This document shows, piece after piece, positions 49,207 to 50,284 of a stretch of DNA of 64,000 nt (position 1 is the first letter of the stretch; each line of letters begins with the position of its first letter). Position numbers and translations under genes: made by a program. Origin of the DNA: Escherichia coli (GTDB lineage: Bacteria; Pseudomonadota; Gammaproteobacteria; Enterobacterales; Enterobacteriaceae); the NCBI RefSeq assembly GCF_044647545.1, contig NZ_CP172818.1, one strand, 5' to 3'. The notes under the pieces are model-generated. The model did no database searches. It was not told the DNA's origin and saw nothing but the letters and a program-made list of their open reading frames with translations.

Positions 49207-49758
49207 CTTTTCCCGCCGCAGGGGCGGTATATCACTCAGGATCCGATTGGGCTGAAGGGGGGATGGAATTTTTATCAGTATCCGTTGAATCCGATAACTG
49301 ATATTGACCCGTTGGGATTAGCGACCTGTTTATACAGCATAACTTTAGGTATGCTTTCATGCGTTTCAGATACGTCAAGTGATGATAATTCTTATGGTGT
49401 GCTTACTATTTCAGTCGCCTCTGGTAATAATGGTAATAATATGCAATGTAAAAATAATCCTGGTTGTACACACTTACAAAATAGAGGCCCAATACCTCAA
49501 GGGGTATGGAGCTGGAATGTTAATGGTCCTGGAGCAACTAATAGAAAACCTAATGGTATACGTTTAGTACCGTCAGCAAATACAGAAACGTATAATCGTG
49601 ATGGATTTTTAACACATAGTTGTTTAAACGCTTTTGGTCCATCTTTAGGACCTCGATTCTGTTCCGAGGGGTGTATAACTGGTTCATCTAATGACATGCA
49701 AAAATTAAATGAGCTAATATTTTCAGAGCCAGATAGCACATTAACAGTGACGGACTAG
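49207..49758 (+). CDS. Orphan Rhs C-terminal tip: short core remnant ([13 protein letters not shown]) plus ~145-aa cysteine-rich putative toxin domain; no canonical start codon
   Basis: Open frame from 49207 after a TAA; ORF track starts at TTG 49285; 8 Cys in the tip; no domain assignment possible by eye. Confidence 0.6.
49208..49295 (+). repeat. Rhs core 3'-end repeat, copy C (internal-deletion derivative: left boundary ttcccgccg fused to the last ~80 bp)
   Basis: ttcccgccgcaggggcggtatatcactcaggatccgattgggctgaaggggggatggaatttttatcagtatccgttgaatccgata matches both ends of copies A and B. Confidence 0.85.
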
Positions 49759-49762
49759 AAAT

Positions 49763-50284
49763 ATGGCAAGGTTATTAACAATTGTGCTTTTTTTCTCTAT
49801 TTCTGCGAATGCAGTTACTGTAAACCAATTTCAGAGAGAGTTGGATTTGGCAGACAAGGCAATATTATGGGCACTAATATCAGCCAGTACCCAAGAGGGA
49901 CGAAAAGCGTGTTCACTTAGCTATTTTTCATGTAAAGCCGCAGAGGCTGAACTCGGACTGGCATATATGGCTGCTAATGATAACAAGGCATTTCTCACAT
50001 CCTTATCTAGAATAATGATGTACAAAATAGATGCTGGACTTTCCGAATCCTATACATGCTATTTATTAAGCAAGGGAAAGATCATAAGACCATATCTGAA
50101 GAATCTAAATCCACACCAACTTGTCGCTGATTGCATTGAAACTGTAAATAAAATAAAAGATAAAAATAAAAAAATCATTGATATAGATTCAGTTAATATT
50201 TGCAATGATAATAAAAATATAAATTGGAGAGTTAATAGTACTATTGTAGCCATTGATGATTCTATAAAATGCATCGATGAATAA
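49763..50284 (+). CDS. Candidate immunity protein for the orphan Rhs tip; predicted signal peptide (possibly yibG)
   Basis: 173-aa ORF starting 5 bp after the tip stop, MARLLTIVLFFSISANA|VTVN...; lysine-rich, AT-rich codon usage like the tip. Confidence 0.6.
   Translation: MARLLTIVLFFSISANAVTVNQFQRELDLADKAILWALISASTQEGRKACSLSYFSCKAAEAELGLAYMAANDNKAFLTSLSRIMMYKIDAGLSESYTCYLLSKGKIIRPYLKNLNPHQLVADCIETVNKIKDKNKKIIDIDSVNICNDNKNINWRVNSTIVAIDDSIKCIDE

Follow-up and report, generated by a model that had tools for sequence, protein, structure and literature searches.

A probable displaced Rhs toxin tip and its Imm57 partner beside rhsA in Escherichia coli

Downstream of the main rhsA gene of Escherichia coli lies an open frame that starts inside Rhs core codons and ends in a small cysteine-rich domain, with a second small open reading frame (ORF) directly behind it. 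What is this domain, and is a toxin tip that has been cut off from its delivery part a spare weapon, a shield or a relic? We addressed this question in a 64,000-nucleotide stretch of E. coli contig NZ_CP172818.1 (assembly GCF_044647545.1), here called the window. The frame is open from 49207, directly after a TAA codon (49204-49206), to a TAG codon at 49756-49758. We regard it as highly probable that this frame and the ORF behind it together make up a displaced, or orphan, module of the E. coli polymorphic-toxin locus rhsA, with a C-terminal toxin and its immunity protein: an intact spare tip, predicted to attack the cell wall of rivals, paired with a secreted antidote. The module consists of three elements:

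49212-49320, plus strand: 3' remnant of an Rhs core, about 34 codons, ending in DPLGL; a copy of direct repeat family D2
49321-49758, plus strand: predicted C-terminal toxin domain of 145 amino acids (aa) plus stop, an LD-peptidase of the Tlde1/DUF2778 superfamily with the motif H-x15-S-E-G-C
49763-50284, plus strand: Imm57-family immunity gene, 173 aa plus stop, recognised by Pfam PF15596 (E 2e-44) and the family alignment

The tip and its Imm57 partner

The frame from 49207 encodes 38 Rhs-core residues and then the 145-aa tip; the DPLGL motif occupies 49306-49320 and the tip proper 49321-49755. Residues 3-38 align with the 3' end of two NCBIfam models, RHS_core (positions 1226-1261) and Rhs_assc_core (TIGR03696), and a phmmer search of the PDB matches the same remnant to the C-terminal ends of solved Rhs cores. 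The DNA homology to the rhs core extends over 109 bp at 89% identity, 79 bp of which are identical to rhsA, and the copies of repeat family D2 lie at 44603-44711, 46986-47094 and 49212-49320. The rhs core has a GC content of 62%, the tip one of 38% and the Imm57 partner one of 34%; a drop from core to tip is usual for Rhs tips. The initial annotation, made from the DNA and its ORF translations, had described an orphan Rhs tip at 49207-49758, downstream of rhsA, with a core remnant lacking the delivery part and a small ORF of its own behind it, and this description stands. Two of its counts are corrected here: the roughly 25 core codons become about 34, as given by the 109 bp of homology, and the eight cysteines of the tip become seven.

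We then investigated the identity of the tip. It matches Pfam Tlde1_dom (PF10908, formerly DUF2778) with an E-value of 5.5e-7 and 30.5 bits over model positions 10-106 of 120, and RefSeq labels the identical DNA as a 'tlde1 domain-containing protein' and an 'Imm57 family immunity protein'. An exhaustive search of representative proteins yielded 169 relatives, with the homologous part at or close to the C-terminus, and several of them are complete Rhs proteins 1378-1616 aa long. When 68 relatives are aligned, C14, G35, S115, G117 and C118 are invariant, and H99 (at least 90%), C3, C43, C49, C101 and C114 are nearly so; all of these residues are present in this tip. The catalytic motif H99-x15-S115-E116-G117-C118 (His99 codon at 49615-49617, Cys118 codon at 49672-49674) fits the L,D-transpeptidase signature HXX14-17[S/T]HGC quoted for Tlde1a (10.1101/2020.02.18.954545; PMC9638812), except that Glu stands in place of the second His (SEGC vs SHGC). 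The AlphaFold model of the tip, computed from the family alignment, has a pLDDT of 94 and a pTM of 0.89, and its top 26 Foldseek matches share the L,D-transpeptidase (YkuD-like) beta-sandwich fold. A search of the PDB with the family profile retrieved L,D-transpeptidases alone, with weak, non-significant scores and the catalytic motif aligned.

On these models the tip is a predicted cysteine peptidase with an L,D-transpeptidase (YkuD-like) fold, belonging to the Tlde1/DUF2778 superfamily. Its six conserved non-catalytic cysteines may form disulfides, by analogy with Tlde1a, which is stabilised by two conserved disulfides (PMC9638812). The initial annotation could not assign the tip to a known toxin fold and so left room for a new one. 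A phmmer search with the tip alone does find no solved structure besides Rhs cores, and NCBIfam holds no model matching the tip or Imm57. The Pfam PF10908 match and the conserved catalytic motif nevertheless rule out an unassigned fold, to which we give next to no probability. A toxin acting outside the cytoplasm, as had been suggested, agrees with the superfamily, whose characterised member is toxic in the periplasm only (10.1101/2020.02.18.954545).

Could the tip be made on its own? Two in-frame starts exist inside the orphan frame, TTG 49285 and ATG 49352, which corrects the earlier statement that the tip lacks its own start codon; neither would yield a complete domain together with a delivery module. 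The second start has been used in public annotation:

49352-49354, plus strand: internal ATG of a 135-aa 'tlde1 domain-containing protein', as annotated by RefSeq/PGAP in strains WB61 and CFSAN061771, whose DNA is identical here

A stand-alone effector, or a toxin-antitoxin-like pair with Imm57, could be imagined from this 135-aa ORF called by PGAP. Most DUF2778 effectors are single-domain proteins (10.1101/2020.02.18.954545), and Salmonella orphan Rhs modules are reported to work as toxin-antitoxin modules (PMC7043789). We think such an effector very improbable here. The origin of the frame is evident from the Rhs core codons and DPLGL that lie in it upstream of the ATG. The 135-aa product would be missing Cys3, which is conserved, and the first beta-strand of the model. 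Ahead of the ATG the sole purine-rich stretch is an AGG at a distance of 2 nt, which is too short for a ribosome-binding site. Moreover, without a signal peptide the product would be confined to the cytoplasm, where it has no access to peptidoglycan, whereas its antidote is exported. The RefSeq gene model of a stand-alone 135-aa tip is probably misleading.

The partner ORF begins with ATG 49763, 4 nt past the stop codon of the tip, and its N-terminus reads MARLLTIVLFFSISANA. It matches Pfam Imm57 over model positions 2-100 of 100 and has the signature of the family, namely D90, the S-E of DAGLSE and six conserved cysteines. A Sec signal peptide is predicted at 49763-49813 with cleavage after ANA; in 20 of 22 Imm57 members the N-terminus is charged, a run of 10 or more hydrophobic residues is present and a cleavage site with small residues at -3 and -1 can be recognised, as called by an N-terminal heuristic rather than SignalP. 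The AlphaFold model (pLDDT 88) has seven helices, and the mature protein is predicted to be all-alpha. The secreted 173-aa partner of the initial annotation, placed 5 bp behind the tip in agreement with the 4-nt gap, is thus recovered at 49763-50284 as a member of the Imm57 family.

The same pairing is found elsewhere. Imm57 lies directly behind related tips (50-52% identical) on metagenomic Rhs proteins of 1385 and 1570 aa, and directly downstream of a related tip in a Ralstonia orphan. The toxin-then-immunity layout recognised earlier is borne out, with an LD-peptidase tip followed by Imm57 here and in these three unrelated loci (L003, L005 and L008). Two further sampled loci (L004 and L006) have unassigned small proteins in the Imm57 position; hhalign comparison with Imm57 gave E 0.0015 and a probability of 16% for one of them and was negative for the other. 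The pairing was predicted in 2012, when Tox-LD-peptidase domains on RHS-repeat proteins were listed with Imm16 or Imm57 immunity (PMC3482391), and Rhs-DUF2778 fusions were later noted in Escherichia and Shigella with the Imm57 link cited (10.1101/2020.02.18.954545). Neither the toxin family, the immunity family nor their association on Rhs proteins is new: all were published in 2012 and 2020, and RefSeq uses the family names. As to whether tip and partner might be an already characterised pair, which the initial annotation had allowed for, both match described families and one relative of the toxin has been characterised, which comes close to that case.

The mode of action can be proposed by analogy. 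As part of a full-length Rhs protein that enters a neighbouring cell, presumably through a type VI secretion system (T6SS), the tip would attack the stem peptides of peptidoglycan in the periplasm. Like Tlde1a, it might trim tetrapeptides (LD-carboxypeptidase activity) or exchange the terminal D-Ala, and the wall would be weakened. Imm57, Sec-exported and all-helical, would meet the toxin in the same compartment and inhibit it by binding.

Two minor observations concern the same DNA. A tandem GGTAATAAT unit in the tip (Gly-Asn-Asn twice, 49424-49441) has one copy fewer in K-12 and 2013C-4282, an in-frame length polymorphism of a surface loop due to slippage. Minus-strand ORFs of 48-80 aa also cover the region; we take them as shadows of the plus-strand genes.

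Armed versions and alleles in E. coli

We then investigated the distribution of the module in 5,426 complete E. coli genomes, from which all population counts are taken. The tip and Imm57 region is found in 3,690 of them. Over 986 bp, 293 genomes are at least 99% identical to the window (100% in CFSAN061771 and N-01), 7 fall in the 95-99% identity class, 3,359, including K-12, in the 90-95% class and 31 in the 80-90% class. The recurrence of the same 986 bp at 99% identity or more in 293 genomes argues that the orphan frame is not a chance ORF.

When the predicted rhsA-orphan crossover sequence was searched, 99 genomes were found in which 440 bp or more of core run directly into the tip. At the same chromosomal site in PE164 and Ec73552 (both 1392 aa) and in 2013C-4282 (1389 aa), the tip is the 3' end of a full-length Rhs gene, in the order yibF, rhs, Imm57, yibH. 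Imm57 is intact in Ec73552 and 2013C-4282 and frameshifted within the signal-peptide codons in PE164. Strains 6409 and DSM 103246 have an orphan tip that retains an annotated core of no less than 471 bp and as much as about 1,065 bp. A word-indexed protein search, which returned short proteins only, had pointed to a tip existing solely as an orphan; the exhaustive search and the chimeric-junction DNA search overturned this.

The loci of Ec73552 (L013) and 6409 (L010) are 99.8-99.9% identical, apart from a segment between two 1,048-bp core repeats. This segment, which holds the rhsC tip and ybfB, is present in 6409 and absent from Ec73552. The Tlde tip follows rhsC-ybfB as an orphan in 6409, and Ec73552 carries it on the only Rhs gene of the locus, which is full-length. 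Judged from these sequences, the two strains are a natural main/orphan switch pair, like the event shown in Salmonella, where recombination activates an orphan (PMC3967940).

In the window the situation is different, and two further elements matter:

47600-49202, strand not assigned: degenerate ISAs1-family remnant that abuts and truncates the orphan core fragment, recognised by comparison with strains carrying the identical pair
49218-49296, plus strand: 79 bp identical to rhsA 44609-44687, the longest exact match and the sole remaining substrate for re-arming

All but about 109 bp of the Rhs core of the orphan have been lost next to the ISAs1 remnant, so that the orphan, lacking both a delivery domain and a proper start, is a silent weapon. 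Re-arming would be possible only by a rare crossover in the 79-bp repeat. Such a crossover would give an in-frame ORF of 1392 aa at the price of 4,609 bp (about 4.6 kb, comprising yibA and the first orphan), and the product would be an Rhs-Tlde protein followed by Imm57. Expression through recombination onto the rhsA core, as first proposed, is therefore plausible, and full-length strains exist. Meanwhile, the intact immunity gene may protect the cell against armed strains.

The K-12 counterpart, yibS-yibW-yibV-yibU, occupies the orthologous position (from the rhs orphans to yibH) at about 91% DNA identity, and is annotated as pseudogenes yibS, yibW and yibU with a 111-aa yibV ('PF15596 family protein'). 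Whereas the window copy is intact, the K-12 tip has decayed through indels of +1 and -1 and the loss of 9 bp; in the K-12 Imm57 gene, 1 nt is missing from the signal-peptide codons and a poly-A run is one A longer. The ratio of nonsynonymous to synonymous substitution rates (dN/dS) between the window and PE164 alleles is 0.16 for the tip (dS 0.11) and 0.30 for Imm57 (dS 0.135). These values show that both genes were under purifying selection for most of their divergence, which does not in itself prove selection today.

The following observations on single alleles are added for completeness. The 1-nt deletion of the majority-allele Imm57 falls at a T-run in the signal-peptide codons (window 49790-49800) and is present even in PE164, which, with its full-length Rhs, may lack working immunity, use an alternative start or contain a sequencing error. 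In DSM 103246 (L011, 7457-7891) the tip stops 10 codons early and Imm57 is intact, an example of toxin decay with immunity retained. A promoter-like TTAACT-18-GATAAT at 50337-50366, downstream of Imm57, appears to correspond to the yibV-yibU spacer, where K-12 genomic SELEX placed a constitutive RpoD promoter with TTAACT-15-GATAAT (PMC3946193). K-12 yibV is also listed as AZT-induced, 7.9-fold (PMC11228462).

The allele distribution bears on a second reading, according to which the pair is a neutral relic: a former main tip/immunity pair that is no longer expressed or selected and has not yet been disabled. We consider this possible, though on balance unlikely. It would account for the roughly 3,359 of 3,690 genomes with a K-12-like allele class about 9% divergent, for the frameshifts in both K-12 genes (pseudogenes yibW and yibU, truncated yibV) and for the premature stop in the DSM 103246 tip; an insertion sequence (IS) element that cut the core down to 79 identical bp and a promoter signal not above chance are in line with it as well. 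It does not sit well with two ORFs that are intact here with every conserved residue present, with an allele at least 99% identical in 293 genomes, or with the purifying selection that the dN/dS values show over most of the divergence, whatever holds for the present day. In addition, an orphan immunity gene would be of obvious benefit wherever armed strains exist.

Several observations weigh against a displaced toxin and immunity module of the kind that we favour. As to the toxin, the sequence link between the tip and Tlde1a is remote (19% identity), phmmer of the tip against the PDB brought up Rhs core ends and no toxin-domain structure, and the distant stand-alone relatives P0126 and P0130 gave no sequence link to Tlde1a. 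Since the sequence searches of the PDB gave no link, the connection to Tlde1a rests on Pfam and fold comparison. The equivalent of Tlde1a His129 is Glu in the tip, and the specificity may differ. The immunity protein of Tlde1 is DUF2195 (10.1101/2020.02.18.954545), whereas an all-alpha Imm57 is found here; DUF2195 immunity is a hallmark of the Tlde1a/Tldi1a pair rather than of the whole superfamily. The literature searched yielded no experimental work on any Imm57 protein or on this toxin subfamily. As to delivery, the PAAR-motif match of RhsA is weak (E 0.074), and no T6SS genes are found in the locus, as judged from the window ORF list and the gene order of matching genomes, the other window ORFs not having been scanned against family models. 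For re-arming, 79 bp of identity are left, against 522 bp in the Salmonella precedent. Promoter-like sites in the region are no commoner than in shuffled sequence (promoter/terminator scan). Finally, the allele of the pair that most E. coli carry contains frameshifts; the module can thus often be dispensed with.

On balance we retain the displaced module as the best account, and a bolder extension of it may be put forward, which we hold to be rather doubtful. The SEGC-type, Rhs-linked LD-peptidases with Imm57 might form a distinct Tlde branch, with a specificity unlike that of Tlde1a (since Glu replaces His129, which orients D-Ala4) and with a helical-repeat periplasmic inhibitor that has no solved relative. 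The intact orphan pair would then be kept in about 5% of E. coli as its immunity protein protects against an armed minority.

Our analysis adds little that is new to these families. It provides a well-preserved example of how Rhs loci store displaced toxin/immunity cassettes, the same cassette being a main toxin, a long orphan, a short orphan or a pseudogene in different E. coli strains. Ec73552, 6409 and K-12 are matched natural strains for work on toxicity, immunity and orphan reactivation.

The surrounding rhsA locus

We then investigated the genes around the module. The order in the window is selA, yibF, rhsA, yibA, orphans, yibH, yibI, mtlA, and the main gene is the following:

40971-44750, plus strand: main rhsA gene, an Rhs core with N-terminal DUF6531 and no functional tip (NCBIfam RHS_core, 2627 bits); it would serve as partner for recombination and as scaffold for delivery

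The DUF6531 domain is recognised by Pfam with E 1.4e-18. The DPxGL motif of this gene is degenerate and reads DIEPPGF, and the ORF stops 12 codons later; the rhsA locus therefore has no armed toxin at present. The first orphan (46639-47148) consists of 151 Rhs-core residues, DPLGL and a 17-aa stub. With rhsA and the first orphan both ending in this way, the tip at 49321 is the only one in the locus that looks intact, as the initial annotation had noted.

Downstream of the first orphan, the frames at 47258-47535 contain a HEIAH (HExxH-like) motif and are split by a frameshift at 47392 relative to the 100-aa WP_022646262.1 of CFSAN061771. The region 46639-47541 looks like another decayed tip or immunity remnant and corresponds to the yibJ region of K-12. 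The yibA gene (45740-46597; HEAT-repeat; NCBIfam PRK09687, 463 bits) is intact, with no mismatches to CFSAN061771 in a binned alignment. In K-12 the RhsA tip precedes yibA; because this tip is absent here, yibA looks like a further orphan immunity-type gene.

In strains with the identical pair, an intact ISAs1 transposase ends about 10 bp before the core remnant, whereas the corresponding region of the window contains only short, stop-containing remnants. The truncation of the orphan core is, from this comparison, probably IS-related. Relative to the closest genome, CFSAN061771, there are no mismatches at 45750-47000, isolated differences up to about 47500 and 99.9% identity from 49203 onward. 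Two blocks, 44712-45700 and 47600-49200, are heavily diverged, indel-rich and ORF-free, with 26-30% GC. The former is the counterpart of an RhsB-type tip and yhhH (73% DNA identity), and the latter that of the ISAs1 transposase. Neither block was found in this form in any of the 5,426 complete genomes. Module replacement or gene conversion, an unsampled lineage, or altered sequence may be their origin.

Comparison with known systems

The closest descriptions are computational. The Tox-LD-peptidase/Imm57 systems on RHS proteins (Zhang et al. 2012; PMC3482391) share the RHS repeats, the LD-peptidase tip and Imm57, and occur in gamma- and beta-proteobacteria. The Rhs-DUF2778 'Tae7' fusions, including Shigella sonnei WP_052983304.1, have the same architecture. 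The module in the window differs from these in nothing of substance; it is their truncated orphan form.

Among characterised systems, Tlde1a/Tldi1a of the Salmonella Typhimurium SPI-6 T6SS (structure in PMC9638812, PDB 7UMA) belongs to the same Pfam family PF10908. It shares the catalytic His and Cys in H...[S/T]xGC, a cysteine richness expected for a disulfide-stabilised periplasmic enzyme, and a Sec-exported immunity protein from a neighbouring gene. On the other hand, at 19% identity the differences are considerable. Tlde1a is a stand-alone effector of 173 aa, whereas the present domain is the C-terminal part of an Rhs protein; SEGC replaces SHGC, with Glu at the position of His129; the His-Cys spacing is the longer, classical L,D-transpeptidase one (x15 before S), while that of Tlde1a is shortened; and the immunity gene lies downstream here and upstream there.

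In its genetic organisation, the module is best compared with the orphan rhs-CT/rhsI of Salmonella Typhimurium LT2 (PMC3967940). The LT2 homology to the main gene extends over 522 bp at 95% identity, as against 79 identical bp (109 bp at 89%) here, and the LT2 immunity protein is cytoplasmic, while a predicted cell-wall toxin is paired with a periplasmic immunity protein here. Furthermore, the main rhsA tip of the window is itself decayed. The likeness lies in a tip with a partial core, devoid of start and export signals. Recombination with the main gene activates the LT2 tip and may do so for the one in the window, and the E. coli counterparts of both states are strains 6409 and Ec73552.

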